A stretch of DNA of 57,657 bases, filler included, from Circinaria calcarea (Eukaryota), in NCBI GenBank assembly GCA_051942165.1. It is 7 parts of 7 records of this genome, joined end to end, with 100 filler letters (N's around TTAATTAATTAA, not from the genome) between each part and the next. Parts side by side here need not be neighbours in the genome. Positions count along the whole stretch, not along the records: positions 1 to 8,169 come from JAVECS010001160.1; 6 more parts are not named here. One strand, written 5' to 3'. The position numbers and the translations under genes are program-made. Shown here piece by piece: positions 1 to 24,020 of the stretch. The notes below the pieces were generated by a model that was not told where the DNA came from, ran no database searches, and was given only the letters and a program-made list of their open reading frames with translations. How positions within the stretch are numbered: position 1 is the first letter of the stretch; each line of letters begins with the position of its first letter.

Positions 1-439
1 TATTGACAAGTTCGCCAAGGTAGATTCGAATCTGGTCTTGCACATCCTCGTCGAATTGCTGGAAGAGGGATTGCCCACCATAAGCAGAGGATTGTTCGAA
101 TAATAGCATTCGTAGGGTCCTTGTCTTGTGATTCTCATCCATGATTTTGTCATGCAAATGCTTGCAGTCCTATACATGAGACGTAAAATCACCAGACTGA
201 TCAAGTACTTCGTCGGATGCCAAATTATGAGATTGAGATAGACACTTTTCATTTGATATAGGTGTATAAAATCATTGCAACTAAACACATAATAACCATG
301 CATCGTAAAGAAATATAATTCGACTAACATCGTCGAATGCCTTAATATCCGAAACCAGTTCCGCAGTCCTCTCACTTAACTTCAAGAGTTGATCAAATAT
401 TGCGATGGTTAAGCCGGCGATGGCCAGTGGATCGAACAT
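1..439 (-). CDS. 5' part of a gene with a HeLo/HeLo-like (HET-S/fungal STAND N-terminal type) helical domain; truncated by the window start
   Basis: ATG at 439; exon 1 is 439-329 (MFDPLAIAGLTIAIFDQLLKLSERTAELVSDIKAFDD). A phase-0 GT..AG intron at 328-170 joins it in frame to exon 2 (DCKHLHDKIMDENHKTRTLRMLLFEQSSAYGGQSLFQQFDEDVQDQIRIYLGELVN). The MxDP-hydrophobic-helix start followed by amphipathic helices is typical of HeLo-like N-termini; the family call is by pattern only. Confidence 0.6.
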
Positions 440-775
440 TGCAATGCGGTCGTCTTGTGGTCTCAAGCACGCATTGTCTATTGCTCATATTATCTCTTCA
501 AGTTATACTGTATATAAGCAATACTAATTTCATATTCAGTCTGTTTCCCTAGACAGGTGCGAGGGGCCGTTCAGCCTCGCGTTCAGCCTGTAATAACCAC
601 TGCCCAATCACCATGTTCTAAAGAATGGGCTTGGAGGCTCGCTCCTCAACAAGATCTCTAGAGCCTTTCATGGAGCGAGTCTCCCGGGTATGAACCTGTT
701 CTCAATTCTCTTAATAAGGAGGGTTGAAAGGATACCTGCCTAGCTACTATTAAGAAGGTAGAGGGGGAGTTTACC

Positions 776-3700
776 ATGGACTCAGCTGAAGAGTGGAGCC
801 TTGTGGTAGGTTCCTGTTCCTTCCCACTTGATGATTTGTCTACCAGTATAATATCTGACCGGTGTATTCGTCCGTGAAGCATAGCAACCGACCTATAACC
901 CTTGTATCCAGTGTCGGGGGCTTCTCACAACCAGCTGTCGAGGGTATCCGAACTCTACACGACCTTCTCCGATTAATCCGACCTCTCAAATTGCAACGAT
1001 ATGAAGGCGCTCAACTACAGCAAGCATGCTTTTTAGGAGAGGGTGTGTCATATAATGTATATCAGTCTACCGACACAAAATCTGGATCATTGGTTGCTGT
1101 CAAAAAAGTCAAACTACCTGCCGCACCTGCAAACCTGGTAGCCTTTCGAAGTCGCATTGCCTGCATACTAAAGGATATCAAGGTTATGAGCCACCTACCT
1201 CTAGCACAGCACTCTAATATACTTAATATTCTAGGATACGGGTGGGAGTCAGGCGGAGAGGGGCCACTGCCATTCATTGTGACGGAGTGCGCTACTTTAG
1301 GCACTCTTCGAGAGCACCTCACCAAGTCTACGACTAACGCGAGGAGAAGACGCGAGCTGTGCCACCAAGTGGCCTCTGGACTGCATGAATTGCATCTGTC
1401 TGGTGTTGCCCATGGCGACTTGAAACTTGAAAATGTGCTTGTTGCCCTAGCTGCAGCAGACCAAGTTGGGCCGCGAAGAGTGCCCGTAGTTGCAAAGCTA
1501 GTATGTCTTCCAATCGCCTTAACCTGAGACTATTGCTACGTTTATCCGCCATTTTACAATACTAAGTCTTCCAACTCAGTCGGATTTTGGCCATTCTCTG
1601 CGCTTTGCATCGGGCACAAATCAGTCTCAGCAGACATACCATGGAACATTATGGTAAGTAGGCAGATCCTGTTTCTAGGAATTATATAATAAATTCCGAT
1701 TCAGGTACAACCCGCCAGAGGTAGTCCAACATGACACCACGGTTGCAGATGTACACCCACGTAAATGTGATGCGTGGGCCTTAGGTTTGTTATGCTGGGA
1801 AGTCCACAAGTGTGGAGCTCGCTACTACGATGATGAATACATGCGAGAACTTCTTTCAAAGACCGAACCACAGTCTACCTCAACCAGCACCAATAGCGAC
1901 GGCCATCGTAATTTGGACCGGGAATCTGCCGAAGTACTGAGTAAGAAGCTCTTCAACATTGGTAGCCTGATTGCAAAGGAGGCTCATTGCTGGGTGGATC
2001 GAGTCCTAATTAAAGATCCGGAATGGCCACATTTCGACAGAATTTTGCTTAAAGGGGTTTTTAGAAACACTTTAGAGGTAGATCCAGCCTCAAGATTGGA
2101 TAACGTTGCACGTCTTCCCCTAGTACACGGAAAAAGGTACGTGGAGCAAAAGCATTCGAAATGCTATCTAAGAGCATACTAAAAAGCTAATCATATGGTA
2201 CTTTGTAGCGAGCTACGTGAAAGGTCCTTACTAACGGCACAACGTGCAGGAGAGGCTGAGTGGACTTTCATGGCAAGTCCCGAACTCTGTCCCGAAACTA
2301 TAATCGCTGACAGGTCAAGCTCTTTCTTGAGGACAACATTTCTCAGATTCCTATGAGGGTTAAAGTCGAAATGCTTGAAGACTTCCAAAGACTAGCTTCT
2401 CTTCCTCAAGGTTCTTTAGAGGTGTCTGCAAGGGCGGCACTGCATGTCGTATTTGCACATGCAGCATCCTTTGCTAATACAGCGCTTTTCACGGAATCCG
2501 TTGGTTTCTGGATCCAGAAAAGTGCAGAGGGTGGTCTACAGATCGCTATCCTTATGAAAGAGCTTCTGGAAATAAAACTTGAAGAAAAGAACCCGCCTAT
2601 CCAACACGAAGGGCCCGATGGTTATAACATAGCTATATGTCTGACAATCAAGGCGCTCGCAAGATCAGAGTTTCCTACCCTGATAGGTATTGGCCCTTAT
2701 TCAACGTTTGCCGCTCTTCTCAACGCAGTACAATCAACTGGCGACCAAAGCCTAGTTGCTCACTATGCCGTGATCTGTCAGCTTACCAAGGTTCTACCTG
2801 CGGAATACGTCAATATCCGGAGTTCAAAGACTGGGGAAACCGCTCTATCACTGGCTTGCAGGCTAGGCGATCACGAGGCTGCAGAGCATCTTCTCGATCT
2901 TGGTGCTGAAGCCTCTACGTGTACTCCAGATGGGTGTAGTGCATTACACTGGCTTTTTGTTTTCGACAAAACACGTATGAGAGAAATGGCCGTCCGGTTA
3001 CAATATCTTGATGCTATGAACCAAATTGCAAAAAGACCTCAGCTGCTGGATGCCCAGCTTCCCATAGATATTTATGGTACTCCACTTGAATTTGCTGTAG
3101 CTGCAGCATCTATGTCTGCTGTTGAGATTCTTATTCCTTTTTCTTTAATGAACATTAACACTCAATTTACTTCTGGACTGTTGGTACCATCAGCTCTAAA
3201 AGGAGCCTTCTCTCGGGCGACAAGCCTTTACTTATACGAAATTTTTGCAAAATTGCGAGAAGCTTATAATCCACATGCTTCGGCTTTTATTAACTTGGGA
3301 GATCTCGCTAAATCATCTCTTGTTATCAAAAAACTCATTCATGGTCATCGGTTAAGCGTAGCACTCGATATAATGTTGGAACGGCTGCTATCTAATCTCG
3401 AAGGTCAACCTGCTTTGGTGGACAAGACTGGTCGTGCGTTGAAGATGCGGATCATCTTAGGATTTCAATTAGCAATCCAAGCAGGAGATATGTCTCTTGC
3501 ACAGAAACTTGTCAAATCGGTTTTTACTACGGAGAACGATCTACCCCTGGAACCAAAGACTGCCACCACTCCAAAGCCAGATAAGTGCTTGACCAATGAA
3601 TTCAAAACTACAATAGCATCTTTTCAGTCCCGTCAAGTCATAGCCAACGATACATCGTCTATCCGGACAAGTACGATGTCCTCCCGGGGTGAAAGAAAGA

Positions 3701-5751
3701 ATGCAACCTGCCTTAGCCTCGGATCGGCAGTATGCCTCTCGTGTGCGGAGGTCGCTTGCAGCTCTATTTACGATCTGGAGACGTCCTTTGAGATACTTAG
3801 ACTTTCGGCTTATTATGGTCCCAAGTTCGATTATATGGACACATGGCTTGTATCTGCAATAACGGCCGTGCAACAACACCGAGAAGATATCTTTCGCTGG
3901 CTCCTACAAAATCCGAATGATCTGGATGCGCGAACTATTGAAGGTGCTACAATTATACACACTATGCTAAAGTACAACTTCACAAACCTGGTTTCTCTAG
4001 ACATAATCTTATCTAAAGGAGCTAACCCAGACCTCGTTGACGAGTTTAACAATACACCTGTCCATGTGACCCTACAACTAGGGATGGCTCAAGAGCTTAA
4101 CACGCTTCTTGATTATAACGCGAGCATCTTCTTAGAAGATCGGGATGGTAATAGGCCGCTCCATGCCGCTATTATATGTGGAAGAGAAGATGCCCTATCA
4201 CGACTACTGCAGCATCCTTTGAGAAAAATCGTAGTAGACGAGAAAGACAGTGAAGGCAGGTCTCCTCTTGCGCTTGCCGCACTAATGGGTCTTCCAAAAG
4301 TATTTGAGCAGCTCGTGGAGTCCGGAGCTAATCCGGGCGTGCTGGACCAGGCTGGTAGAGCGCCTATTCACTTAGCGGCATCGGGTTCCACTTCAGGGCA
4401 TCAGCTCGTGCTCGCCATTATACTCGCCCTTTTGCTGTCTATGGAGCAAGACGTAAATATCCTGGATGACGGAGGGAACACTGCGCTTCATGTTTCTATA
4501 ACTTCTCAAGCTCTGCTCGCGAACCCGACGTTTGATGTCTGCGAACAATTACTAGCGGCAGGTGCAGATGCGCAAATTAGAAACAACGAGGGCGATCTGC
4601 CGATTTTCCTGGCATTGCGTTTGCTGAACTTAAAGCTCTTTTCCCGATTGCTACCAATTCTATTACGCAATGGAGCGGACATCAATGCCCGAGGCTCTCT
4701 ATCGCTATCGGCATTACATTTCGCTGCGCTTAATGGGGAAGCAGATCTTGTTCTGGAGCTAATCAAACATGGAGCGTTGCCTAATTTGTCTGGAAACGTT
4801 GACCACGGTACACCTCTACATTGCTGTGCAGAAGTCTCTCCAGCCACGGTCGAAGACGAACGCATTAGGCGGACTACATTTGAACCGAAGATGTTCTCTA
4901 CAGTCATGAGAAAGGAAACTGCAGCACGATATCTGCTTGATGCAGGCGCTGACATTTTTGCAAAATTCTCAAGCTCCGAGGGACGTATACTCGAGGCGAC
5001 GCCCCTTGATATAGCATTGAAGGTAGGAATCGCTACGGTTGCTATCACACTGATTGAGGAACACTATACAAGATTAGGTGACATACTGGGTGCTTTACAT
5101 TTTGAGGTGTTGCAGCGCGCCTTCGATTACGCCGTAAGGCATCAGCAGTTTAAAATTGTTCACCGGTTCTTGCTCTCCAAGATACCTGTCGACAAGTCCT
5201 CACTGTGTAACTTCGGTCATGGGATGAAGATTCTGGCCCACGCTGTATATTACGACAAATCCGAGATCCTGCAATGCTACAAGGAAACGCAGTCTAGAAT
5301 GATATTTTTAGACAGAGTGCCGCAAAATACGAACATTCCGTCGTTGTGGGCTATTATTGGAAAATCCGGTTCAAAGGTACTCGAAGCCGAGGTGTATCTT
5401 CAATTATATTCAAGGATAGTAAGAGACAGTACAGGAAATCGCAACCCAAAAATCATCACCATTGGTCTAGATCTGGAACGAATTGTTTCAGATACTTACC
5501 GTCCTAGTAGCTGGAGTGAAGAGTCATGGGCAAAAGACTTATCATCGTATTATTCCAGAGATGGATACCCGAATATTTCCTTAGCCATGGCACTTTACCT
5601 ATGGAACATTTCTGATTGGAATGATGGTGAAGCTCTGGTGAAGCGGAGATATCTCGATGCAGCTCTGGAATGGCTTCCTGATCTAGGAGAGAACATAGCC
5701 TCAAGTATATCGAATTGGTTGGAATCGGGACTTCTGTCTCACCGGGGTTAG
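776..5751 (+). CDS. Ser/Thr protein kinase fused to a long ankyrin-repeat array (multi-exon)
   Basis: Kinase motifs across spliced exons: GEGVSYNV, VAVK, HGDLKLEN, SDFG (after the intron ending 1579), GT..YNPPE and DAWALG. ORF 2353-5751 has many ankyrin repeats (GETALSLA, GNRPLHAA, GRSPLALA, GRAPIHLA, GNTALHVS, SALHFAA, GTPLHCC). Probable ATG at 776 with a short first exon. Confidence 0.88.
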
Positions 5752-6710
5752 CCTCTACGGACTTGACAGCACGTGGTTTACCCTACCCTTATTCCCGAAT
5801 GAATCAAGGCCGCCCTTCCTATTCGCCAGCTACGTCGTATTCGGATCGGTCACACCCGAAGCGATTCTGAACCCATCCCACCCAATCATCCCCAAACTCA
5901 ACTGGCCTTCTATCCAATCAGCCTAACAGATCGACTGGCCTGCCTCCATGAAGCTCATTCTACACTACAGATCAACCAGGATCAGCGGCATGAAGCAAAA
6001 GAGTGAACCAGGGACTTTTGTCATATCTTTCCCGAAAGCAAGGCACTTTTTTCCATTCAGGAGGCATGTTCGAACAGTGCTTGGTCTCGCCCGTAAGACT
6101 CCCGTGTACTTTACTACGGTTTGAGCACAATCACCCCTTGCGGACGGACATGTTCTCGTACCGGTATACATTCAATGTCCAAGGGGTCTTCTATGTCTCG
6201 TCACCCATTTGAGGAGCTAGTAACCCGTCGAGAGTGCAAGGCGTGCTTGAAGACTTGTCTTGTGTGCGAACGTGGGCTGTTGAAGTGGAGACGAATCGAG
6301 TAGGATTATCCCCCCGCACGCCGTGCCCATAGCCTTGAGTTCTCAAATTGAAATGTCAACAACTTCAAGCTTTTCTCATTTTTCCGATGATATGACTTGT
6401 TCTATGATGGGGAGGTCCTCCAGGGGTTATACAATTTATGTTTTGTGTTTGGACAGATTTAATTCCCAAGTCTCGAGCACACCGCCCCAGAATTCGTTGG
6501 GAGTTGTGCTTTTTAGAGCTGTTGTACATACATTATCCGCACCTCTATGACGACGTATGTACGTGCAACACGATGGAAAACAACGATACCGAGCTCTACC
6601 TAGTCGCAGCTTGACTTCCTCCTCCGAACCACTACCTCACCTCTATTCTGCTCTTACCTCTCACGAGCATGAGACTGAATATGCCCCCCTTAACCATCCA
6701 TCCACCCCCC

Positions 6711-7621
6711 TCAATGCATTCCCTCATGCGGCGTAGCAGTCTCATGATGTCCCGCATCGCCCCTATACCCCACCAGCTTCATCCGGCCCAGTATCTCTCC
6801 TACGGTGAAGAATCCCAATACTTCGGCGGCGATGACTCCTGCGGATGCTAATTGGGCGCGGTTGACGTTTCGTAGGCGGCTGAGGATATGCTCGGGGTTC
6901 AAGGTGCTGGTTTCTGCTACTTGCCGGGTGAGGGAGGTAGGATGGCGGATGACATTGAGGGCGGGTTGGAGGTAGGATTGGAAGGCTTGAAGGTTGCTGG
7001 GAGAGGAGATGGAGAGGTTAGTGGCGAGGATTTTTGGGGAGGGGAAGGGAATTGAGGGAGACGTACGGAGGTGACATTTTCTGGGATTGGAAGACCATTC
7101 TGGACAGTTCGAGGAATACCTTGGAGTAGTAGATTGTTGGGGGAATCAATGCTGCAGAGAAAATATCAGTCAATGGATCAGGGTTGCAACGGCGCTTTCA
7201 GTTGCTTGTCCCAGTTTTCCCAATGATACGAAACCGTCTTCTAGATTCATTTGCAGATGGTGCCCAAAGTCGTCTTTCAGACCAATCAAGTGCCATGATA
7301 CACGAGACATCCCCAATCGCCTTCCCGGTAGTCTGACTTACATTGGACAAACCCAATCATTCTTCCTGCCCTGCCACCTATTCTACCCAAAGTATTGCTC
7401 ACTCCCTGCGCAGCTCCACTCAATGCCGGTCCAGCGGACGATGTCACCCTTGACAACCCCTCTGATGCCTTTGACGTGACAGTCGCTGCCGAGTCCTTAG
7501 CCTTGGAAGCTGTATTCGAAGCAGCTTCGGTAGCTTTCGAGCTCGTTGAAGCATGACGAAGGGCGGACCGTCGCGCGATCAGATGCGTGTGTCGTAGCAT
7601 TGTACGAACCGGTGCAGACAT
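6711..7621 (-). CDS. ATP20: Mitochondrial ATP synthase subunit g
   Basis: Arg/Ser/Ala-rich presequence (MSAPVRTMLRHTHLIARRSALRHAS) and the subunit-g C-terminal signature AAEVLGFFTVGEILGRMKLVGY; two introns. Confidence 0.9.
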
Positions 7622-8169
7622 GAATCCACAGTCCTCCGCTGTAGTTCTAGATGAGGAGAGCAAGGGGTATACAAATTGGCCGAAGGTTGCTATCGTCGCT
7701 TGTGAGCAGCTTTCAAGGCGTTGCTGGAGGAAGTCGAAGAAAAGCTTTCGTCCCCATGATTGGCTGGATCTGTTTTCGGAGGTCCGGAGCTTTCATGCCG
7801 CGGCATCTCTTTGTAATGGAAGGAGAACTTGGTTACATGCGCCAGACATCCTTAGCGATGAGATAGATACCGATGCTCCATTTCTTCATACGAAAAGGCA
7901 CAACTGTCTGACAGAAAAGCATGGCGCGCCAAAGAAGAGGCTCAAATGTCTCAAACAGCTCTTCCGTGCCCGAACACGATCAGGTCAGTTGTATCGTGTC
8001 CAGGCAGCTCAGCCTGAGTCTGACGACGGGGGTCGTGTGATAGGAGCTTGGGAGCATGTACGATTACCTTGCCAAAATCATACTACTTGGACCAAGCGGT
8101 ACCGGCAAGTTCGTCGATGCAAGAAGCTCTGTTCGGTATCAAGACTGACCTTGGCCAAGGTCATGTCTC

Positions 8170-8269
8170 NNNNNNNNNNNNNNNNNNNNNNNNNNNNNNN
8201 NNNNNNNNNNNNNTTAATTAATTAANNNNNNNNNNNNNNNNNNNNNNNNNNNNNNNNNNNNNNNNNNNN
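8170..8269. other. Artificial contig-joining spacer (N44-TTAATTAATTAA-N44)
   Basis: The identical 100-bp spacer, with stops in all six frames, occurs six times. Confidence 0.98.
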
Positions 8270-8369
8270 TTTTTAAAACGATTTTATTCCCTTTCCATAC
8301 TGAAAACGGATCGGGCTCACTCCCATCTTGGGGAACATATAATATATATATTATATATTCATGGCTCTT

Positions 8370-8740
8370 GGACGAATATAGGCTGCTATCCTTGGTGCCC
8401 GACTGGAGAAGGTCCGAGGGTATCATTTTGGCAGAGCCGATCTGCCCACACCGCGCCCACGGTAATTCGACCGTAAAGCTCGAGATTATGGAGGAAGATG
8501 ATCTCGTGCTTCGAGCCTATAATGTGAAGATCGATACAATCGGGGTGTGCTCCCGGCTGTTGTTTTCTAGAGATTTTTACGGCAAGAAGACGCCGGATTA
8601 ACCGTTCATAACGATAGAACAGCTCTGGCATAAGGTTTATAAGAAAGAATAGTTTAATCTGGACGACAGGTATCTGAACGGTTAGACAGCATTTTTCGCG
8701 TTTATACAAACGTTCAGCAACGGCTGCGTGTAGGCCGCAG
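8370..8740 (+). pseudogene. Degenerate (RIP-like) fragment of a HET-domain heterokaryon-incompatibility-type gene
   Basis: Translates LLSLVPDWR...VLRAYNVKIDTI...TIEQLWH...FFAFIQTFSNGCV with in-frame TAA/TAG stops. It resembles the LPSWVPDW and LxVxGxxIDxI motifs found C-terminal to HET domains. Confidence 0.5.
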
Positions 8741-9134
8741 AACACGAGTGCAGACTATATCACGAGGTTTTAGATCTTATATGGCGCTGCGGAAGATAGC
8801 TAGGTATATCGTGGAAGTCTTGGGGGCATCCGATGATATATTAGAAGGGGTCCAGATAGCGGCAGGGGTTACAGAGCGCGAAAGTGATTACGAGGGGTGG
8901 AGTTGATAAGCAATGTAAGGGCTCTACCCGAGAACCCCTAGGAACCCTACGGGTGAACTATATACCGAGGTCACGAGGTATTGGCTTAGCGAGAAAGGTT
9001 TTCCTCGCGAAGCGTTACACCAGAATTCTTTAGTAATAATTTATACGCTATGCGAACCAATTGAGCACATTATCACACAATTTATCGACCCCTATCTGTA
9101 AGATCACTATACCATTCCTAAAGGATCCTTACAG

Positions 9135-9434
9135 CTTACTTAGTTTCTCCGCTAAGGTTCGCTGGCGGGCGAGATTAAAGGCTATCGAAGGTATATATTT
9201 TATTCGGATAGGGCGTTTAAGAGAATCCTGTTGTACCAAAAACTTAACAAGGGCTTTATTTTCCTATGGGTAAAGATAGTATTGGCTTTAGGCCTTCTCT
9301 TCCTTAGACCGTCGACCGCGTGCACGATGCTGGAGAATAGTGCGAGGGATATCGCCATAATCTGCTAGAGCACGGAATGATTTAGGTAGGCCAGGAGGGA
9401 CGCCTTGTGCTAGTACCTAACTGGCTTTATCCAT
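9135..9434 (-). mobile_element. Remnant of a pogo/Fot1-like DDE transposase (N-terminal HTH region), mutated and truncated
   Basis: The minus strand from ATG 9434 reads MDKAS*VLAQGVPPGLPKSFRALADYGDIPRTILQHRARGRRSKEEKA*SQYYLYP*ENKALVKFLVQQDSLKRPIRIKYIPSIAFNLARQR. This matches the fungal pogo-type N-terminus; the stops are CAG/TGG-to-TAG type. Confidence 0.75.
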
Positions 9435-9767
9435 GTTAGCTTCCGGTGATGGTGGGTGATGGTGATGGGAAGAGAAAGAGTGAGAGGCAACTGCTGGCAA
9501 CTCCGGGCAAGGCAAGGCAGTACTAGGCAACAATAAACGCGCAGCACAATGACACCGGGCGCGTCTGGCCATGGAAGGGCCTTCTGCGGTGCGCCACAGC
9601 CATTGTTAGAAGCTAGTTCTAAACTAGTATAGCGTATAATATAATATGATCAAACTCTACGTTAATCGCCGCCCTTCCTCTGCACGGCGAAACACCCGGA
9701 ATACGTGTTCCTCAAGTCGAGTAGCCTTCAACGCTTAAAACTATACTCTTTCATATCGGGAATGTTA

Positions 9768-10140
9768 TAGCATTACTCCGAAACTCGAAGATATAGAAAT
9801 ATCCGTCATTGAGCAGGGGGCCATCGCTGAAGCGGCAATTAATGGCGTGGACAAAACAATCGATAACATGACTAGAAAACCTCTCTATAACGAGAACTAC
9901 CGTAGGGTCAGAGGAGAAGTAGCTATAGAACAACAATACATCAACTATATTTTTATACACTTATAAGAAAGAGACTTCTAAGATCTAAACTATGAATCTG
10001 GCTCGCAACGCTAGGTGGCTCGCAATATAGGGACATATATTAGAGATAGTTTCAGAGGCCGGAGTGCTAAGGGGGGGAAGTCCTATCGAGGATGAACATA
10101 GCTCCAAGCTTTGTGTAAGGGTACTAGGATAGGCTAGACT
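9768..10140 (+). pseudogene. TpA-rich degenerate coding relic of unknown family
   Basis: Protein-like frame (YSITPKLEDIEISVIEQGAIAEAAINGVDKTIDNMTRKPLYNENYRRVRGEV...) broken by TAA/TAG stops. Confidence 0.3.
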
Positions 10141-10282
10141 TATATAAGGGATAGAGTCACTCCATAGTGCACGAATACATCAACAATATAATATGGGTCT
10201 ATTGTTGCTGTTGACTACTGTTTAGTAAATGGCTATAAGTATGCTATTCTAAAGAGCCGAATAGCCTGCCTATGTACTCTAG

Positions 10283-10362
10283 TGCTCACCTCTGCTCATA
10301 CCCTAACACTCATGAGCACTTATTTGCTCACCTCTGCTCATACCCTAAGCACTCATGAGCAC
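10283..10362. repeat. Two-copy tandem repeat with a 42-bp period
   Basis: TGCTCACCTCTGCTCATACCCTAA(G)CACTCATGAGCAC at 10283-10319 and 10325-10362. Confidence 0.9.
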
Positions 10363-10831
10363 GGTACAAGGGTTAGTCCGTTCCGGCACCATCCCTTCCT
10401 GGTCTAGCCCATGTGTTAGCGCTAGCGCCATAACACTTTGAAGACAGTCTGCTTTGAAAAAAATATATTCCCGAGTTTTTAAACGGTGGAGGAAGCGGGA
10501 TTAACAGGCTCTCAATATACCGGGATGTTTTAGCGCGCCTTAGCTTGCATTAGCGGACTTACGTGATCGCGTATTATATGTATCATATCTGACGGTATCA
10601 TAATTTCAGATAAGGATTCCAGACTGATTGTGGCGCAGCACGGAAGGCTCTAGAAGTTTCTAGGCAATCAACTGGGTCCAAAGCTGAGACTTTCGTAGGA
10701 GAAGAACATGAATGTCTTCGCTCGCTTTCTCTCAATAGGTGCTGGAAATTCAAATTCTTATATCGAAGCTCTGACGTTCGGCTATCACTTTGCACGAGAA
10801 TTAAATTTTCGATTAATTATTTCCCTTTCAT

Positions 10832-12406
10832 CTATACCGTTTTTTTTAAGACAGCATTTTTCTCTATAGACTTTCGCTTTAGCATCCGACCCTGCCACCG
10901 CTGCCAAAATACCTAAGTAAGGAAAACAATTAATGTTAATAGAATAGTCGTTACCCAATAGCACCAGAAGCGGCCTTTGATAACTGATTGGGGCTTGGGC
11001 ACGTCCCAATCAAAGAATGGAGTTGTAAATAATGCCTGTCAATATCGTGGTTAGACTTCTTAAGGTTTCTCCATCGTATACTAGACGCTTACCGCTGTAA
11101 AAGTTCCAGGGAGAAGAGCCATGGTCAAAACCGCAATGGTTTTCATAGCAGCAGCATCCTGCCGTGAATTTTCGGCGATTCGTGTCGACTCGTATGTAAG
11201 TGCGATAGCAATCTGGTTGCTCTTTTGTTGAGAAAAATTGTAGATCTAAGCTCAGTATTAGTCTCTTACGAGAAACAGAAGCTCTCTTGATCGACTCACA
11301 ACAGCCAATTGTATTTGTATGCGCTTCTGTTCAAATGCTGCCTGGAGCAAAAGATTCTGGTTGCTGTTCCTGGTCATTTCTAGATATTGCCGAATCGTAT
11401 CATAGCTCTTGTCAAGCAATAACTTCATGTCTGGCGTGGCACTTCGGGCAGTTGCTTCAGTATACGTCAAGCATTTGTCCAGCAACATCTGTCTTGCTTC
11501 TGTTCTCATCTCCATCATGCTCAGATTTCTCGCAGTGCCATTGAGAGCTGGTATGATCGTTTCAAAGTCGGCCCGAAACGGATCTTCGCGCGGCTTGGAT
11601 GAGTACGTATGTTGACCGAGACAATGCTGAGTATAATCAAGCCTTTGCCCCTGGTGCTGCATCCTCGTCATTGTCATGATCAATAGCAAATGCATGAGCA
11701 TTACAGGCACGAATAATGGCTGCGGCGCAAGGCAACTATTACTTCGAAGTAGAGTAAGAAGGCCTTCAAAGTCGAAGACCTCACTTTGTGCTAAGATAAT
11801 AGCATAGGTCATCGCTGTATTCCTGTGATATATCAAAAGGATTGTGTAAAATCCAGCGGTGCCGATGCCCACTTTAAACAAATAGGCTAGACTCTGTCAG
11901 TTCATCGGTATTTGATGATAGGAACTTTACATGCCATCTGATGAGATTGCGTCTTTTCCTCCAAAGCTACACTGAACTGGTAAATGAGCAACGTGCGGTA
12001 TGCTATGAGTAAGGATATCGATAATATGTTGTGGAGCGGACAGTTTTTGACAAATCTGTTTAAATGTAGTTTGCGACCAAGGCATAACTACCGTCTTGTC
12101 TACTGTTGAGGTTTTGGATGTGGAAAGTAGCAGCCGAAGACGACCCTTCAGAATGTCTTGTTGGGCAACTTGTGTATGTTGGCCATCCGGACTACCGGGG
12201 ACGGGGAGACCTGAGAAGAGCCATTCCTCAACTTGGTCTGGGTAAAGAAAACCCTCTCTTATCGTACCCGTGCCATTTGGATCAGGCGAAATCTCAATAT
12301 ATGAGCATTCCGCCGGTTCAAACCCTAGACTGTAGTCTATCGAATGGTCGTATAGAGATGGGGAGCTATTCTCCTTGGTATGTATATTACTGAGAATAGG
12401 AGCCAT
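10832..12406 (-). CDS. Fungal CorA-like protein (helical domain plus C-terminal two TM helices); premature TAG at the end of the second TM helix, possibly decaying
   Basis: Four exons. The C-terminus reads ...STRIAENSRQDAAAMKTIAVLTMALLPGTFTA/ALFTTPFFDWD...FWCYWVTTILLTLIVFLT*VFWQRW. MKTIAVLTM..LPGTF is the fungal CorA-like signature; the canonical GMN is replaced by TTP. TAG at 10915-10913 sits where W is expected. Confidence 0.78.
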
Positions 12407-12473
12407 CAGCTTGATTTACAAACTAAAAAGTTTTTGATAATAGCTCAGTGTTTGCACAAAGATAATCTAATTA

Positions 12474-12695
12474 CAGTCTCATGCAATAAGTCTGCACCCC
12501 CCTGCCGGCAGCTAACTACTAGTTTATAGAAGCTGGTCTGGAGGTAGAGGATAATTATATACCGCTTTGAACTAAAATCTTATGTTTTCTCTACCGTCCT
12601 ATGCTCCAATCACGGCTTGGGAGAGTTGGACAAAAGCAGCAAGTACGCTAACAGAAAGCTAGCAAGGGGGGGTGCAGACTTATTGCATGAGACTG
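12474..12695. mobile_element. 222-bp Tc1/mariner-type MITE (mimp/impala-like)
   Basis: Perfect 29-bp TIRs (CAGTCTCATGCAATAAGTCTGCACCCCCC) flanked by TA on both sides (12472-73 and 12696-97); no ORF. Confidence 0.93.
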
Positions 12696-12956
12696 TAGGT
12701 TGCTTTCTTATTTAACAGTCCTGGAGGAGTCAAAGCGAAGTGGGAATCCATGTTATCTCTGAGTCAACCGAGACGACCTCGGCCAGATAAGAGTAGTGTA
12801 AGCCTGAGACTTGCAGAACACTCTCTTCATTCGCTAAAAATATGCAGGCAAATTACATAGCCTCGCTAAATAGTCCCTGCAGTTCAGCCTGATTCTTCGC
12901 CGAACCACTTACCACGTGTTACAGTATGAGTGGCCGACCGGTCAGAACCTCGGGTG

Positions 12957-13235
12957 ATGCTGCGCCCCGTACCCTCTATCCAGTGACGCTTCTTTCTCCT
13001 AGATCAGGCTGTGGCTACTTTTGCTCGAGCCATCCACCAGCAACCCTTCGTTATCATCGCGATTGCGGATCAGGATTTCGAGTGTTCCTGTCAACGGAAC
13101 TATATTTGTAGCCGCAGATATTGTTCGAGCGACCCAAGTGGATTGTGTGGAGAAACAGGGGTAATACAGGATGCAATAGGCTGTATAGGCTATGGTAACT
13201 ACCAGTCTATGTGTGTGGACTTCACTGTAGAATAA
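12957..13235 (+). pseudogene. Possible small Cys-rich protein remnant
   Basis: ATG 12957 is in frame with ORF 13011-13235 (7 Cys) but interrupted by TGA at 12984. The N-terminus is weakly signal-peptide-like (RFFLLDQAVATFARA). Confidence 0.25.
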
Positions 13236-13716
13236 CATAGCAGAAAACTCTGCTATGTATATTCTGCGGGGGTTAGTTCACCCGCTCCGCCCATTGGTTT
13301 CCACATAGTGTAAACCCCTATTCTTGACAGATTGAGGTATCGCTAATTGGATGTGCCCGATACGCCTCACTTGGAGCTGCATGTCGGCTTACTTATAGCC
13401 TTATCATAGCCGCCGCCCCAGCGCTCAGCCTCTGTATAGCCACGCCATATCGCTTAGCTTTAACTCACGGGCTAATTTGAGGTATAGCTTACCACCTCTC
13501 TACTAGGGGCGGTTGAGGCTAAAAACCCAGAGCCTGGTCCGCATGTTCATGCATCTCACCATGTTCAGGCCTTCATGGAAATTGGCTTCCGTCTGCTTGA
13601 AGCTTATTGATCGCTATCTGGGAGAATTTCTTTATCTCGTCGATTCAACTTCTATATCGAGTCTTGAAATCTCCCCTCTGTCTGTTGCAGACTAGTTCTC
13701 ACCGCCAGCATCACAA

Positions 13717-15243
13717 ATGCTGAACTCCTTGCAGTCTCGACCCCATTCTCAACTAGCTTTGGTTATGAGTTCAGCGCTCAAATCCATTTCGCGCGACGAA
13801 ACAGTCCGCACCCGCTGCGATGATGTCCTCGATAATTATGCAAAGTCTGAGACACAAGAGCTATACAAGAAGCTAGTGAAGCTCACCATGGAAGAATGCG
13901 AGGAATTACTAAAGAATATCAATGGGAAGGACAACAAGAAGAAGGGCGTTAAGGGAGTGGTACAAGGCAGAACGAAGGAGCATGAGTCTTTGGAGGAAAA
14001 GCTAAATATATTGAAAAATTTGAAAGAGAAGCCCAAATACATGAATACCGAGGAGTATGATTGGTTGGAGGAAAAGCTGACACGTTTGGAAAACAACAAT
14101 AAGGACCCCAAGGAGGATGAAATCTTAAAGAAAGAGCTAAAGCATTTGAAAGAGGACCCCACCAAGAATCCCGAGGACTATGACTGGTTGGAGAAAAGGC
14201 TGACAGATCTGGAGAACAACTTCAACAAGGGCCCCGACCCCAAGGAGTATGAATTTTGGCAGAAAAAGCTGACAGAGCTGGAAAAGGATCCCAACGAGGC
14301 CCCCAATTTCAGAGAATGGGTTTCTAATGATGAAAACAACATCTACGAACATCCTGAGATGGGGGACCTTGCTGGGGTTCGTATTGGGCTGTACCTTCCC
14401 GGCGACGTTCCCAGGGTCGCGCAAAAAATTGAGGAGCACTTCGACAGGAAATGGCTCTTTGGTACGGTCACGGGTGGGCGAGATACTATCAAGGGCAGAA
14501 ATATAAGCATTAAGAAACATATGAATGGGCAATGGTACTCCCGAGGTCCTGACGGGACTGATAAGCACTGGGAGCATTACGGATACAAGTCGTGGCAAGT
14601 GGTGGTCGAATGGAAGGAGCCTCTGGCTGAGCGTTTCCAATTACTCAGAAGAGAAATAAATAAAGTGGGTCTCAACTCGCTCAGAGTAGAGATCCAGGTC
14701 GGAACGGTAGTAACGCAAGCCTGGGCTGAGGTGCAACACAACATCATCTACAAAGACCCCGACAATATCGATACCACGCCGACCATAGAGCGAATAATCG
14801 ATGCCGTTAATGATATGGTAATCACGACCGATATTATGCTCAAGGAATTAGAAAAAGGCGTGGAGGATGCAAAGAAAGAAGCGGAGGAGGCAGGAAATAA
14901 ACGATTCAATGACGGCTATGACTTTTTGCATTGGTTCAAGATTACATACTTGAACCGAATGCGGGAAGAGGAGCGTAAGCTTTGGGCTTCAAATACGAAT
15001 ACGGCTCACATATTAATCAATCTGTATTCTCGACGAGCTTGTCCTAGCTTTTTTAAGTACCCAATTGAGAGGCACGGGCTTCTACGGACGAAGCTGCCCA
15101 AAGCAAACAGGTATGACATCTCTGTCCTTCTCCTAGAAGATATGGGCAATATTTCCTCCGTGCCGCTTAAGTACAAGAAATTTCTATCCGGCAGGCGTAT
15201 GAGGAACACTGCGGAACTGAACTACCGGGATTCTACTGGGTAG
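13717..15243 (+). CDS. RelA/SpoT-family nucleotidyltransferase (small alarmone synthetase-like) with an internal repeat insert
   Basis: Intronless 508-aa ORF with synthetase motifs in the expected order: RTKEHESLEEK (RxKxxxSxxxK), DLAGVRI, GYKSWQ, EIQVGT, AWAEVQHNIIYK. Confidence 0.88.
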   Translation: MLNSLQSRPHSQLALVMSSALKSISRDETVRTRCDDVLDNYAKSETQELYKKLVKLTMEECEELLKNINGKDNKKKGVKGVVQGRTKEHESLEEKLNILKNLKEKPKYMNTEEYDWLEEKLTRLENNNKDPKEDEILKKELKHLKEDPTKNPEDYDWLEKRLTDLENNFNKGPDPKEYEFWQKKLTELEKDPNEAPNFREWVSNDENNIYEHPEMGDLAGVRIGLYLPGDVPRVAQKIEEHFDRKWLFGTVTGGRDTIKGRNISIKKHMNGQWYSRGPDGTDKHWEHYGYKSWQVVVEWKEPLAERFQLLRREINKVGLNSLRVEIQVGTVVTQAWAEVQHNIIYKDPDNIDTTPTIERIIDAVNDMVITTDIMLKELEKGVEDAKKEAEEAGNKRFNDGYDFLHWFKITYLNRMREEERKLWASNTNTAHILINLYSRRACPSFFKYPIERHGLLRTKLPKANRYDISVLLLEDMGNISSVPLKYKKFLSGRRMRNTAELNYRDSTG

Positions 15244-15907
15244 GCATGAGTGTGATGGATGTCTTGAGTGGTCTACGGAGCTTATCGCACGTCACTGAGG
15301 GAGCAGCTCTCTAGCATCACGGGGAACTCAGAATCGCTTGCGGAGAGGGTATTGGCTAGAATTTGTTCGAGGTGGTATTCGCTTGAAGGATCGATGGCGG
15401 TGGGATTGAGGATGGAGCGCAGGCTTCGCATACTGTGCGCCGATGGCAGCTTATTGCACGTGTTCAAGATGTTTCTCGTGATTTAGATAGTGACAGTTAT
15501 TTAGCAGATCGGATATATCGCCGAATAGCTGCCAGTGGCATCTAGGCACGTCGACATTGGCTAGACGTTTCTGTCTAGCCGTCTCTCCACGTCAACCTCT
15601 CGCTTCTGCACGCAACGAGAAGAGAGGTCATGGCCACAGACATATTAGCCACAGCTTGGCTTTCTCTGCTTATATGTGTTAAATTACACTATCATTATGT
15701 ATGGGATGAGCCAGTAATGTAACAAGGATCATATCGCTTTTAAATTAAATAGTATTAATCAGCATGGCGACGTTGCATAAATCAATCTCACGCCGCACCC
15801 CTACGACTGACGATCGCTTCTTAGTATAATAGGGACGTTTAAAAAGTCGGATATTACCATTTTTTGGTATTGGGAATTATAAGAATTCGATAATAGAGCG
15901 ATAGTAA

Positions 15908-16419
15908 GGGCCTGTTTGGCAACCCCCGATTGTTGGAATCGATTGTCACAATCGATTTTGCCAGAATCGATTCTGAAAATCGATTTTGCGTAATTGCGAA
16001 AGGGTGTTTGGGAAGTGCGATTCTGGGCCGATTATGGAAGCTATGATTCCCCGCTTGCAAGGATCAAAATTATAGGCTAATCACTAGTAAATTTTATCAT
16101 TTCATATTGGGAAAATCATGAACTCATTCTTGCAGGTGTGTATGATTCGCAGCAGTCATCAATTCAATTAGATATGCTTCACCGGTCAAAATAGAAGTAT
16201 TATGAGGATTCGCAACATAATTATTTGATATGTAGTAAGCTAGAATAATAATTACTGCCTGTACAGCATAAAATTCATCGATATCATCCATTTTTTGTCG
16301 TGTTTTTTAGCGCAAAATCGATTTTCATAATCGCAAGAAGTAGGTCCGGACCTATTTATGCCAAGGCACTAAATTTGTATGTATTCGCAAAAATCAAAAT
16401 CGCTGTTTACCAAACGCTC
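15908..16419. mobile_element. Possible PIF/Harbinger (Tourist-like) non-autonomous element remnant
   Basis: TAA followed by GGGCCTGTTTGG at 15908, a second GGGTGTTTGG at 16001, and inverted CCAAACGCTC at 16410-16419. The AT-rich interior has repeated AATCGATT/GATTCGCA motifs. TIR pairing is imperfect. Confidence 0.4.
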
Positions 16420-16424
16420 ACTTG

Positions 16425-16524
16425 NNNNNNNNNNNNNNNNNNNNNNNNNNNNNNNNNNNNNNNNNNNNTTAATTAATTAANNNNNNNNNNNNNNNNNNNN
16501 NNNNNNNNNNNNNNNNNNNNNNNN
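16425..16524. other. Artificial contig-joining spacer
   Basis: N44-TTAATTAATTAA-N44. Confidence 0.98.
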
Positions 16525-17908
16525 ACACAAGGCACGCCGCCCACCCACTCCCCTCCCTTCTCCCGGACTTCTTCCCCTGTGACCTGTACCTCGCCCCCTA
16601 CTCCCAACCCGCCTTCCGTCCTCACCCCGTCAATACTGACTTCGACTCCCCTCCCCCTATTCTCCTCACTCAGCCGCAGCGTAAGTGGTACATGCGCCGG
16701 TAGCACCAGCGGCCGGAAACTCAACGACCGAGGACAGATGGGCGTCAGCAGCAGGGATGAGACGAGCGGGTGCACGATACTGCCGCCGCTGGAAAGCGAA
16801 TAGGCAGTTGAGCCCGTGGGCGTGGAGATGATGAGGCCGTCGGCGACGGCACGGGTGAGGGGTTTGGAGGCGATGGAGATGGAGAGGTGTGTTAGGTGTG
16901 GGTTGGCGCCGCGGTGGATAATGACTTCGTTGAGGGCGTGGGTGATTGGTGGGGATGGGGGTGAGGATGGGCCAAGGGGGTTTTGCGTGGGGGAGGACGG
17001 GATGACGGAGACTTTGAGTCTGTTGCGTAGGAGGATGCGAGCGGTGCGGTGGATGCCGAGGGATTTCCCACGGATGGAGGACCAGCCTATTTTTTCCGCC
17101 ATTGGGGTTGAGAAGGCGGGTTCGGCGTTCTCGTCAAACGAAGCAGTTGACGGTGGGGGGTATTCGCCGAGGATGGGACCTCGATCGCCGAGACTGGCAC
17201 CGGACATGTACACTTCCCTGAAGGCGCGCTTATGCTCGGCGAATTTCCATTCGCCAAGGAAACCGAGGGTGCCCATTGCGAAGGAGAGGATTGGCGGGAC
17301 GGAGGGTGTGGTAGAGAAAAGGGAGGAGGCATGGAGGATTGTGCCGTCACCGCCGAAGGTGGTGACGAGGTCGGTTTTTTGGTGGAGGGGGTTTGGAGAT
17401 GGGAAGATTGGGGAGGGTGAAGAGGGGAGGGTGTAGATTGGGAAGGGGAGGTGGCTCTCGATGGTTGAGGCGGTGGAGGGTTCGAGGATGAGGGAGATGA
17501 AGGGGTAGGTGGTGTGGACGTGTCTGTAGAAGAGGTGGTTAGAGGTTGCAAGTCTAGATCAATCATCTGGGCTATTCAGGAAGTAAGTCGAAGGGGCTCA
17601 AGTAAGGAGACTTGCTTTGCGAATTCGATCAAGGCATCGGTCGCTGCTGGGGAACAGTCTTTCTTGACCAATAAGATATTTCGAGGCGGAGACGGCCATC
17701 GCAAAGAAAGGAGGTCATTGCTCTTGGTCTCTGCGAGTGTAAGTATATCTGAGAGTATCCCAAAGGCTGGAGTTGCATGTATACCTCTATAAGTAGGGTA
17801 TATCCGGCTCGGAAGCTCTGTGATATCCTTCACGAGTGACCTTCGACATGTCGAAGAGAAGTCTCGATGCCATTGTAGAACCCGGAGACGCCTTGGGAGT
17901 ATTTTCAT
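16525..17908 (-). CDS. POS5: Mitochondrial NADH kinase (3' end truncated by contig break)
   Basis: Presequence-like start, WPSPPRNILLVKK, TFGGDGTILHA, GTLGFL, ALNEV and ADGLIISTPTGSTAYSLSSGG. Confidence 0.9.
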
Positions 17909-18276
17909 ATCGATAGTAACAGAATGGTCATATTCTTTAAGGGTTTCCTAAGATATCACATCCTGAAGCCCGTGCTCTTCAGCCTTACAGGGCACCGTCA
18001 TCCTAAGGGTTCAATACCTATGCTTAACTCTCATGTGAGGACTTGACTCGTATACCTTACGATTTCCTAACCATGCATGTCGCCACATGGTTCGCTTTCA
18101 GCTTGTGATACTGCTGACATGATATCTGTATGAATTATATACCTTATCCACAAGAGCTCCATAGCCACGTGTGCTAGTCTCGGCATTAAGCAAGCAGATG
18201 ACTACTCTACGGGACAAACAAAGAATACGAAAATAGCGATTCTGGTTTCAGCACAACCCTAATACCTAACATAATA

Positions 18277-19642
18277 ATGTCTTCGGGAAACAGCAAGGAG
18301 GAATCAGTGCCCATGGTTTCTAAATCCCTATCGGATTTGGGAGCCGGTGCCAAAGGGGCAGCCTTTGAACCACATCCTGTAGGACGGGTCCGACATGGAG
18401 CATTCGTACAGGTTGTTCGACTATTGCTGTTTGTCACATGGGTCAACTGTTGTATTTGCACCATTGGTCTTACTCAATACATCGGCGCTCCCTTGTACCT
18501 CATAAATCAGGATTATTTCTACTCGTACATGGCCTTGACCAAGCAATCCTTCGGTCTCTTAATCACCACCTTCACACAGTGGTTCAGCCCCACGGTGGTG
18601 CGAGTCAGCGGTGATAAGAGTGTGAGAGGTCAACTCCGGCAGACCAAGGAAGGCCTCCTCGAGACAGACTTCCCGGAAAGACTCATCATGATTACGAACC
18701 ACCAGCTCTATTCGGACTGGTTATACTTGTGGTGGATAGCGTACACAAGTAAGATGCACGGACACGTTTATATTATACTCAAGGAATCGCTAAAGTATAT
18801 CCCCGTTGTCGGGCCGGGCATGATGTTCTATGGCTTTGTCTTCATGGCAAGGAACTGGGCAAAAGACAAGTCACGCCTTCAACACCGCCTCCAAAAGCTA
18901 AAAGGCCGGCACAGTGGACCACTATCTGGCGAGCAGGAGTTGGACCCTATGTGGCTTATGATATTTCCCGAAGGGACCAACCTATCTGCCAATACGAGGA
19001 AGAAGAGTGTCAAATGGGCCATACAACAGGGCATCCCCGATCTGAAACACCAACTATTGCCCCGAAGCACAGGTCTGCGTTTTTGCTTACAGCAGCTTGA
19101 AGGGACCGTTGACTGGATATATGACTGTACCACAGCCTATGAGGGTATCCCGTAAGTCTTTCCTACTAACGAAATTGGGGTGATGGCTAACGACCGTTCG
19201 AAGTCGAGATGGCTACGGCCAAGACTACTTCACTCTGTGGTCGACATACTTTCAGGGACGGCCTCCCAAATCCGTGAACATGTATTGGCGACGATTCGCT
19301 ATATCTTCTATTCCTGTCAGCGACTCGAAAGCCTTTGAAAAGTGGGTTTATGAGAGGTGGTTGGAGAAGGAGGAGCTTCTGGAACAGTATATGCAAAACG
19401 GTCGATTCCCCGCCGACGACGGATCCGAATCCGAAAGCGAAACTGCAGCTAACGGCACTGCTCCGGTGAAAGCTGCCAAAGGCGCTGGCTTCATTGAGAC
19501 CGAAGTGCGCTTAGCACACTGGTATGAAATCGGCCAAATTTTCGTAGTACTAGCCACTTCTGCCTTGATCATCCACAACATCTTGAACACTTGGTGGCTT
19601 CTCACACATGGCGTGTTCCTCAGGCAAGGCTTAGGATGGTAA
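18277..19642 (+). CDS. Lysophospholipid acyltransferase (PlsC family, Cst26/Psi1-like)
   Basis: NHQLYSDW (HX4D), LKESLKYIP, IFPEGT and LLPRSTG; one intron at about 19151-19203; C-terminal TM segment. Confidence 0.88.
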
Positions 19643-20180
19643 TCATGTCCGGGGTTGAAACGGTTGCATGGCACTGGCGTTTATGGGATTATGATTGGGC
19701 ACCTTAAATGGTTGGAAACTATTTTGGAGGAGTGTTGTTTTGGACTTTGAGACTGAGAACCGTTTGTCTAAAGTTTCTATAAGCAGATTATTGTAGAGAC
19801 AGGACTATATTGATTGTTTTTGTTGTCTAATTGTGGGAATTTCTCACCCATCTCATGTTCCCAGCAAGAGTCGCGTTGTCCTCTCTTCGGCTATCCATGA
19901 ACATGGGCCAACGTACGGAAGAGGCATAATGTATCCGCAGCCGGCGAATAGACGGGCCGGGCGCGTTCATACCTTCGAACGCCAAAAGACTCACTGGGTC
20001 TATCTCACCTTATATGTTGTTCTGGCGTCCATGTCACCTTTAGTTTCTCACCTGCTCTAAGAATGTCTAGAGCACATCAAATGACTTGGTACAAGTGATG
20101 TTGGCGAGGATCTAGAGTTTGAGGCCAGCCTTGTGTTGCATTCCCTATCCTCATTGAAGGGGGTGCATTACACTGACAAC

Positions 20181-23100: not shown

Positions 23101-24020
23101 GGAGAAACACCATGCGTCGCCAACTTGAACGAGCTATACAGCAACAGAAGGAGTACGAGGACGCCAATGCTGCGAAGCTCCAGGAGGCACGTGAAATCCG
23201 TGAGGCAGAGATGAAGAAGCGAGAGGAGGAGAGAATGCGGGCCGAGGAGATTGTGCAGGAGAAGAAGAGGAAATTAGCAGAGGAGAGAAACAAAATGCTG
23301 GAGATTAGTAGGGAATTGGCGGAGAAGAGAGCGGAAGAGGAAAGGAGGAAGGAAGAGGCAGAGTACACCGATGACGAGGAGACCGGTCAAAGGGTAAAGC
23401 GAAAGAAGAAAAAGGCCGGTGGCAAGAGAAAGAAGAAGGGTGAGGACGATGATGGGGATGGGTCTGGAATGGATGGCCCTGGAAGAAAGAGCAGAGGTAG
23501 GAGCACAACAGAAGGGAGCGTTGCCCGTACTAGTGACGAGGAACGTGCGCCGAAGAAGAAGAGAAAGCTAGCGAGGAAGAACGCCAGTAAGGCAGAGGGC
23601 AAGATCAAGAGTAGTGAGCTCGTGGAAGACAGCGACGACGATGAAGAGATTGTTGTCGGTGGAACTCAAGCGGGGAATCTTTCTGGAGTCGATGTCGGCA
23701 ATGACGCTGCAGATAATCCAGACTCGGACATCAAAATGGCCGATGGAGATGACGAGGACGAGGATGCAGTCCAGAGACCTCGGAAGAAGAAGATATCCAG
23801 ACGCATCGATGATGATGAGGACGATGAGGGTGATGAGGACGACGTAGATGCCGCCAGTCCCAAAGTCGACGTTGAAGAGGAAGGGGATGGAGATGGAGAT
23901 GAGGATGGGGATGGAGAAACGGCAAACGAGACTGGTAACGTCTTTGCTGATCCGGTTTCTCCGCCCGTGGTTGATGAAACAGTCGCCGCGGCGGGAGATG
24001 GGGATACCGCTGAATACTAA
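20181..24020 (+). CDS. CTR9: Paf1 complex TPR subunit Ctr9
   Basis: N-terminus (SAIDIP...EAVEV.LEEL.DDPTELCTLLENE), many TPRs, ALQLDPKNAYAAQG, and a Lys/Glu coiled coil with an acidic tail; two introns. Confidence 0.93.

Follow-up and report, generated by a model that had tools for sequence, protein, structure and literature searches.

Can a protein kinase encoded next door serve as the trigger of a membrane-attacking HeLo-type protein in fungi? This question is raised by a 57,657-nucleotide stretch of DNA from Circinaria calcarea (GenBank assembly GCA_051942165.1; seven parts of seven records joined end to end with filler between them, positions 1 to 8,169 coming from JAVECS010001160.1), which as a whole is referred to here as the window. 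Within its first 5.8 kb there are two divergent, intron-bearing genes of fungal type, called here the left and the right gene. A first-pass annotation, made from the sequence alone, had described them as a HeLo-like gene and a kinase-ankyrin gene, and had proposed that an ankyrin sensor acts by phosphorylation on a HeLo-like executioner in the manner of RIPK and MLKL. We found that the sequence observation made there is confirmed, and that its interpretation is partly supported. The recurrence of the pair suggests a kinase-controlled cell-death switch of a kind so far undescribed in fungi, and to the full explanation, in which by analogy with known systems the kinase-ankyrin protein would activate a HeLo-pseudokinase executioner, we would assign a probability of roughly 0.4.

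Layout of the gene pair

Two genes transcribed in opposite directions make up the module at this locus. Its start codons lie at 439 (minus strand, left gene) and 776 (plus strand, right gene) with 336 bp between them, exactly as had been read in the first-pass annotation. The features of the module are as follows.

1 to 169, minus strand: left gene, exon 2, incomplete (56 codons, the in-frame part being 2 to 169) and open at the window edge
170 to 328, minus strand: left gene, intron 1 (159 nt, GTTAGT...TAG, phase 0)
329 to 439, minus strand: left gene, exon 1, whose ATG is the reverse complement of 437 to 439; 37 amino acids, hydrophobic N-terminal helix
440 to 775, no strand: intergenic region, 336 bp between both start codons
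569 to 577 and 581 to 589: direct tandem repeat GTTCAGCCT within the intergenic region
776 to 805, plus strand: right gene, exon 1, start codon and 10 codons in all; intron 806 to 879 comes next
880 to 1500, plus strand: right gene, exon 2, with the conserved N-terminal motif, the N-lobe of the kinase and the catalytic loop (Pfam, Pkinase, E 9.7e-16)
1580 to 1653, plus strand: right gene, exon 3, DFG and activation segment, in agreement with the database protein P0001 (see below)
1705 to 2136, plus strand: right gene, exon 4, PPE and kinase C-lobe (Pfam on 1706 to 2134, PK_Tyr_Ser-Thr, E 0.0045, and Pkinase, E 0.033)
2209 to 2272, plus strand: right gene, proposed exon 5, followed by a proposed GC-AG intron at 2273 to 2331
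2332 to 5751, plus strand: right gene, last exon, with a linker, ankyrin repeats at about 2833 to 4797, a C-terminal region without known domain, and the stop codon

By homology, the left gene falls into a HeLo family that continues into DUF7580

The C-terminus of the left gene lies beyond the window edge, as had been recognised before, and 93 residues of its product are visible (37 and 56 amino acids from the two exons). In translation the first 37 residues are hydrophobic and have a helical character, so the hydrophobic N-terminal helix claimed earlier is indeed there. These exons have close relatives. Exon 1 shares 73% identity with residues 1-37 of P0018 (E 7e-17), a complete protein of 562 amino acids named from Tricladium varicosporioides, and exon 2, colinear with the first match, is 56% identical to its residues 38-91 (E 1e-18). 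In a metagenomic locus described below (L003), tblastn found counterparts of exon 1 at 647-537 on the minus strand (68% identity) and of exon 2 at 448-287 (52%). The position of the junction between exons 1 and 2 is identical in annotated P0018, in L003 and in a further locus, L005.

It is through these relatives that the family could be named. The longer exon 2 of L003 matches the Pfam HeLo profile (PF14479; gathering cut-off 23.2 bits) with 29.6 bits and an E value of 7.7e-07, and when it was used as a query in a protein search, nine related proteins were retrieved. Five of them (P0017, P0018, P0020, P0021 and P0024) pass the HeLo cut-off, three (P0019, P0022 and P0023) stay slightly under it, and P0025 has no HeLo match. 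By homology to relatives above the Pfam threshold, the left gene of the window is thus assigned to the HeLo family.

According to Pfam, P0018 and P0020 consist of HeLo and DUF7580 (DUF7580 E 4.8e-14 and 5.4e-14, respectively), and so does the product of L005. A region of the DUF7580 type follows HeLo to the end of the protein in these three, and in P0019 and P0021-P0025 as far as their sequence extends. Because the exons of the left gene are colinear with P0018, which Pfam reads as HeLo plus DUF7580, the left gene is probably MLKL-like, that is, composed of HeLo and a pseudokinase, and not merely HeLo-like. A C-terminal kinase or pseudokinase, which the earlier reading had left to be looked for, is therefore present as DUF7580 in the full-length relatives, while the corresponding part of the window's own gene falls beyond the edge.

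An AlphaFold model of P0018 places helices, at low confidence, at residues 4-35, 39-61, 78-106 and 163-201. Between the last two of these, residues 108-169 form a serine-rich, poorly conserved insert of low confidence, which is present in all family members and could be a regulatory or phosphorylated loop.

DUF7580 is likely a pseudokinase

Several weak lines of evidence, none of them strong alone, agree that DUF7580 is likely a kinase fold stripped of its catalytic residues. P0018 has sub-threshold Pfam matches to PK_Tyr_Ser-Thr (E 0.011) and to Kdo kinase (E 0.072), and phmmer against the PDB retrieved, weakly, a plant Pto-like kinase (5xd6_A, E 0.052) and IRAK4 (E about 0.07-0.1). In the alignments to IRAK4 and 5xd6_A the catalytic HRD is replaced by HES and DFG by GFE in DUF7580; MLKL also reads GFE at the DFG position. 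Residues 282-404 of P0020 match the kinase of another metagenomic locus, L014 (tblastn, E 1.8e-4). In Atlas clusters DUF7580 occurs mixed with PK_Tyr_Ser-Thr (13-22% of members); in one of the clusters, DUF7580 accounts for 73% and HeLo for 47%.

The predicted structure points in the same direction. The confident part of the AlphaFold model of P0018, at residues of about 240-350, follows the order strand-strand-strand-helix-strand-strand, which is that of a kinase N-lobe. When this model was compared with the PDB by Foldseek, nearly all rows were kinases or pseudokinases; the best was RIPK1 (9mzx_A, E 0.061, probability 0.99), followed among others by a maize pseudokinase, TNNI3K, BRI1 and RIPK2, with AtMLKL3 ranked 33rd and the pseudokinase of MLKL 47th. 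A second structural comparison, with VIA, barely probed the pseudokinase part because the model is poor there.

The right gene encodes a kinase followed by a long ankyrin region

The six-exon model of the right gene is free of internal stops up to the stop codon at 5751 and codes for 1546 residues. In the spliced model, the motifs VAVK (1093-1104), HGDLKLEN (1411-1434), DFG (1583-1591) and PPE (1712-1720) are all found, and on the piece 2314-5748 Pfam reports Ank_2 in six stretches (E 3.3e-42), with matches to Ank, Ank_3, Ank_4 and Ank_5 as well. The kinase with these four motifs and a long ankyrin array, as described in the first-pass annotation, is thus real. When the N-terminal part of the kinase was aligned with that of six relatives (alignment A1), the lysine, HGD and the asparagine proved to be invariant in all seven. 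The glycine loop of the right kinase is atypical (GEGVSY), and the helix-C acid is apparently Asp. Judged from these residues, the product looks like a non-RD serine/threonine kinase of catalytically competent appearance, followed by a long ankyrin region.

The same architecture, at about 50% kinase identity, is found in proteins named from Geoglossum, Candelaria, Xylariaceae and Fusarium. The relatives carry a short N-terminal extension ahead of a conserved TLVSS motif, and the kinase-ankyrin family also has a long non-ankyrin tail. One protein, P0003 (417 amino acids, named from Trichoglossum), is a kinase only and equally close to the right kinase.

The absence of a nucleotide-binding P-loop, noted earlier, held as well. 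On the right-gene exons there was no Pfam match to NACHT or NB-ARC at E<=1, and the Walker A motif G....GK[ST] does not occur in the 1546-residue model. We also considered whether the right gene could be a sensor with diversifying repeats, similar to a NOD-like receptor (NLR), and rejected this idea, as there is no NACHT or NB-ARC, no Walker A motif and no tandem DNA repeats.

The predicted product is 100% identical, exon 2 included, to P0001, a partial hypothetical protein at NCBI from a Circinaria calcarea metagenome-assembled genome, which makes the source a lichen-forming ascomycete or a very near relation of one. The gene model of P0001 skips 2078-2313 and drops a stretch that is conserved in homologues. 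The alternative model used here keeps this stretch in frame by placing introns at 2137-2208 (72 nt) and at 2273-2331 (59 nt, GC-AG); the latter has a GCAAGT donor, and CTGAC lies 20 nt ahead of its acceptor. We infer the GC-AG intron because this is the only stop-free model that retains the residues conserved in P0002.

The head-to-head pair recurs in diverged loci

A metagenome scan with alignment A1 left 80 loci, fourteen of which (L001-L014) clearly belong to the kinase family. A stretch of at least about 1.1 kb upstream of the kinase match was available in 11 of these 14, and as the kinase rows of L011 and L012 are identical, the 11 loci represent 10 distinct ones; L002, L006 and L010, with too little upstream sequence, were left out of the pairing count. 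A HeLo-family gene was detected by tblastn with P0018, P0020 and P0023 in two of the 80 loci, L003 and L005, one further weak match being the L014 kinase itself, and tblastn of L005's own products against the 80 loci revealed no additional HeLo-family locus. The head-to-head pair is therefore present in 2 of the 10 distinct kinase-family loci.

In L003, the left gene runs from 647 to 2 on the minus strand, divergent from and upstream of the kinase match at 1138-1722. L005 provides the complete arrangement: a HeLo-DUF7580 gene at 6826-4997 (minus strand) and a kinase-ankyrin gene from 7219 to about 10640, with a gap of about 0.3-0.4 kb between the divergent genes. Its left product shares 32% identity with P0018 (E 2e-72), exon 1 being followed by an intron in the matching position, and its right gene has VAVK, HGDLKLDN and DFG together with Ank_2 (E 4.1e-50). 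With the window, three diverged loci carry members of these two families in head-to-head arrangement; the kinases of the paired loci are only 35-38% identical and sit in three separate branches of the kinase tree.

It was plausible to ask whether the surroundings are shared as well. As tblastx of the right-side flank (window 5752-25000) against the 80 loci found no flanking gene in common, the pair is shared and the wider neighbourhood is not, in comparable flanks. By a rough estimate, chance divergent adjacency to a member of a few-gene family among about 10,000 genes would be expected in one locus in 1,000 to 10,000, and three instances among 11 distinct loci (window included) would be far above this estimate. 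With only three instances, the pair may have been retained by descent.

The 336 bp between the start codons are presumed to be a bidirectional promoter serving both genes. Among the window, L003 and L005, the intergenic regions share a single 8-mer, CAGCCTCG, which lies inside the GTTCAGCCT repeat of the window, and nothing longer; this sharing may be due to chance.

A possible kinase-to-executioner switch

How could such a pair work? The HeLo domains tested so far are membrane-permeabilising death domains whose killing requires the N-terminal helix, according to a 2025 review (PMC12881547). In the mechanism we propose, the HeLo helical bundle of the left protein, with its hydrophobic first helix, would be the membrane-attacking part, and beyond it there would be, by homology, a brace-like helical stretch and then the DUF7580 pseudokinase. 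The ankyrin region of the right protein would take in a signal or retain a partner. The kinase domain would next bind and phosphorylate the pseudokinase domain of the left protein, and the HeLo domain, freed in this way, would oligomerise and permeabilise the membrane, the outcome being regulated cell death or defence. Overall, this would be the logic of RIPK3 acting on MLKL, with neither an NLR nor an amyloid motif. The proposal has this form because it is modelled on RIPK3-MLKL and on the killing role of HeLo N-terminal helices described in PMC12881547. What we infer here is that the left gene of the window carries the pseudokinase, that control runs from the kinase to the executioner and that cell death is the outcome. 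Some direct partnership between both proteins has a chance of about two in three in our judgment. That filamentous fungi possess a kinase-driven necroptosis-like pathway, in which a non-RD ankyrin kinase phosphorylates a HeLo-type MLKL homologue encoded head-to-head, with no NLR or amyloid templating, seems a more doubtful claim.

Evidence against the switch and competing explanations

A number of our results weigh against this mechanism. On the side of the left gene, the assignment of HeLo and pseudokinase to the window's gene rests on homology, from 93 residues, and Pfam gave no match when exons 1 and 2 were examined separately; this fragment covers the first ~90 residues only and lies upstream of the best-matching part of the HeLo profile (positions 69-175). 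The HeLo-like character proposed in the first-pass annotation is thus upheld by the relatives (29.6 bits for L003 exon 2, and the five proteins above the cut-off), but not by a Pfam match of the window's own residues. The AlphaFold model of P0018 has a mean predicted local distance difference test (pLDDT) score of 57.6 and a predicted template modelling (pTM) score of 0.39. In VIA, its N-terminal part matched the MLKL N-terminal domain 6ux8_A (Z 7.8, root mean square deviation 3.7, 120 aligned residues), MLKL 4btf_A (Z 7.4) and the Rx coiled-coil domain 4m70_A (Z 9.3), yet all these Z values stay under about 13, which is the chance level for helical bundles, and residues 2-218 give generic bundle matches. 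The Foldseek comparison, which did return mostly kinases and pseudokinases including that of MLKL, had no PDB row at E<=0.001. Finally, when the HeLo-DUF7580 family was aligned with the kinase-ankyrin family by hhalign, HES was placed on HGD, with a non-significant probability of 0.13%.

On the side of the right gene, a particular resemblance to the RIP kinases was not borne out. Searches of the PDB with the sequence and with a profile gave as best matches CDK4, Aurora A, TYK2, ULK1/2, LIMK1 and PAK, at 30-47 bits, as well as WNK, and there is no RIPK among the 60 best rows of either search; the right kinase is, by sequence, not specifically RIPK-like. Nor did Tandem Repeats Finder (minimum score 30) report any array in 2314-5751. 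This lack of DNA identity from repeat to repeat differs from the near-identical repeats typical of hypervariable, diversifying fungal NLRs, so that the idea of an ankyrin sensor remains a guess. Outside the pair, the window is neither an immune nor a secondary-metabolite cluster.

These ankyrin repeats resemble an ordinary, non-diversifying scaffold, which would suit a partnership of another kind. Both proteins might cooperate with the opposite sign, the kinase-ankyrin protein being a guard or a brake that holds the HeLo-pseudokinase protein inactive until an insult removes this restraint, or the pseudokinase might be an allosteric partner or a membrane anchor, with no cell death involved. The conserved pairing and the content of kinase and pseudokinase are compatible with any kinase-pseudokinase partnership, and the data give no direction of control between the two proteins. 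However, killing via the N-terminal helix is what the HeLo domains tested so far have in common (PMC12881547), and the left gene retains such a helix, so that we regard this explanation as unlikely, if worth keeping in mind. A different doubt concerns the left gene itself, as no more than 93 residues of its product can be seen. Past the window edge it might continue as an NLR of the HeLo-NACHT or HeLo-NB-ARC type, or as a HET-S-like HeLo protein with an amyloid motif, or it might be truncated; HeLo domains are indeed known at the N-termini of fungal NLRs and HET-S-type proteins (PMC9815663, PMC12881547). Such an ending would be hard to reconcile with the 56-73% identity and the intron position that the left gene shares with the HeLo-DUF7580 family, in which every relative reaching that far enters a DUF7580-type region, and we consider it very improbable.

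It might also be that the two genes are mere neighbours around a common promoter region that stay together through co-regulation or because rearrangement is slow, with no direct biochemical link between their products. Divergent gene pairs generally stay together longer than other neighbours, and only three instances of this pair are known. Moreover, eight of the ten distinct kinase loci (L001, L004, L007, L008, L009, L011/L012, L013 and L014) are without the pair, which counts against the switch as well; the repeated head-to-head linkage that the first-pass annotation proposed to look for exists in two other, distant loci. Upstream of the kinase of L001 there are an FAA hydrolase and DJ-1; nothing was recognised there in L004 and L007, and tblastn detected no HeLo relative upstream of the kinase in L013 or in the shorter L008, L009 and L014. 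L011 has an HNH_2 endonuclease-like frame (5732-6829) about 3-4 kb upstream of its kinase-ankyrin gene. When a maximum-likelihood tree was built from the N-terminal region of the kinases, the window, L003 and L005 each fell into a different well-supported group, with unpaired members in between, and the pairing label requires three state changes, no fewer than shuffled labels do, which again does not favour the switch. On the other hand, the pair recurs across kinases that are 35-38% identical and left genes that are 32% identical (L005 versus P0018), comparable flanks have no genes in common, and chance adjacency is roughly estimated at about 1 in 1,000 to 10,000. Mere neighbourhood therefore seems to us rather unlikely.

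As a side observation on the unpaired loci, the kinase-ankyrin genes of L011 (9706-13125) and L012 (9998-13417), which have the identical kinase rows mentioned above, lie on contigs from different metagenome records.

Genes in the rest of the window

Between 6714 and 56325, the window contains housekeeping genes: ATP synthase subunit g, NAD kinase, an acyltransferase, a tetratricopeptide repeat (TPR) protein, a SLAC1-type transporter, biotin-protein ligase, Mgm101, a HODM-like protein, a DnaJ protein, an aminotransferase, Cns1/TTC4 and a GH18 chitinase with a chitin-binding module. An open frame of 515 codons at 13696-15240 (plus strand) matches the RelA_SpoT nucleotidyltransferase profile (E 1.1e-06, 29.3 bits, cut-off 27). 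The RelA_SpoT domain is also found N-terminally in some fungal NLRs.

Comparison with known systems

Two-gene clusters of a HeLo or HELL executioner and its activator are known in fungi, and so is the architecture of the executioner proposed here; what is apparently new is a kinase as the paired neighbour. The architecture can be regarded as already accepted in the field because the 2025 review notes that some HELL domains occur in proteins with a kinase or pseudokinase domain 'reminiscent of MLKL' (PMC12881547). The titles and abstract openings of the literature searched gave no description of a kinase gene as the conserved partner of a fungal HeLo-pseudokinase gene, and a full-text literature search gave no occurrence of the term 'DUF7580'.

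The closest fungal precedents by layout are perhaps NWD2/HET-S and PNT1/HELLP. Like the pair described here, they are adjacent genes, one partner being a HeLo or HELL executioner with a key N-terminal helix; unlike here, their other partner is an NLR (NACHT or NB-ARC), and a prion-forming motif at the C-terminus serves activation by amyloid templating (PMC9815663, PMC12881547). The partner in our pair has no nucleotide-binding domain, and the relatives of its executioner end in a pseudokinase instead of an amyloid motif. By architecture, fungal HELL/HeLo-(pseudo)kinase proteins and the plant MLKLs (AtMLKL1-3, Pm13) are alike, having the same helical bundle and (pseudo)kinase; in the accessible portions of the literature searched, no upstream kinase or conserved gene neighbour is named for either group.

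The right gene can be compared with RIPK4 and ANKK1, which have an N-terminal kinase and C-terminal ankyrin repeats. The domain order is the same, but the right gene is not specially close to the RIP kinases, and the fungal family adds a motif conserved at the N-terminus and a long tail without ankyrin repeats.

Fungal HeLo and HELL proteins are known to be fired by NLRs via amyloid templating, and animal MLKL by RIPK3. A conserved pair that joins an MLKL-like gene with that of an apparently active kinase thus offers a concrete candidate for the upstream kinase of fungal MLKL-like proteins, and DUF7580 gains a likely identity as their pseudokinase. The pair also bears on the question of whether kinase-triggered necroptosis logic predates animals: if the proposed switch is real, a kinase-to-MLKL switch would be far older than animals, or would have arisen twice.

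The remaining comparison is with RIPK3-MLKL, the necroptosis pair of animals. On one hand, the fungal kinase is not RIPK-like by sequence and has ankyrin repeats where RIPK has a RHIM (RIP homotypic interaction motif); no RHIM or amyloid motif turned up in the fungal pair, although no search was aimed at either. The fungal genes are adjacent and divergent, unlike the animal pair. On the other hand, the fungal executioner would combine an N-terminal helical-bundle membrane domain with a C-terminal pseudokinase that reads GFE at the aligned DFG position, just as MLKL does, and its partner would be, to judge from its conserved residues, an apparently competent kinase of the non-RD type.

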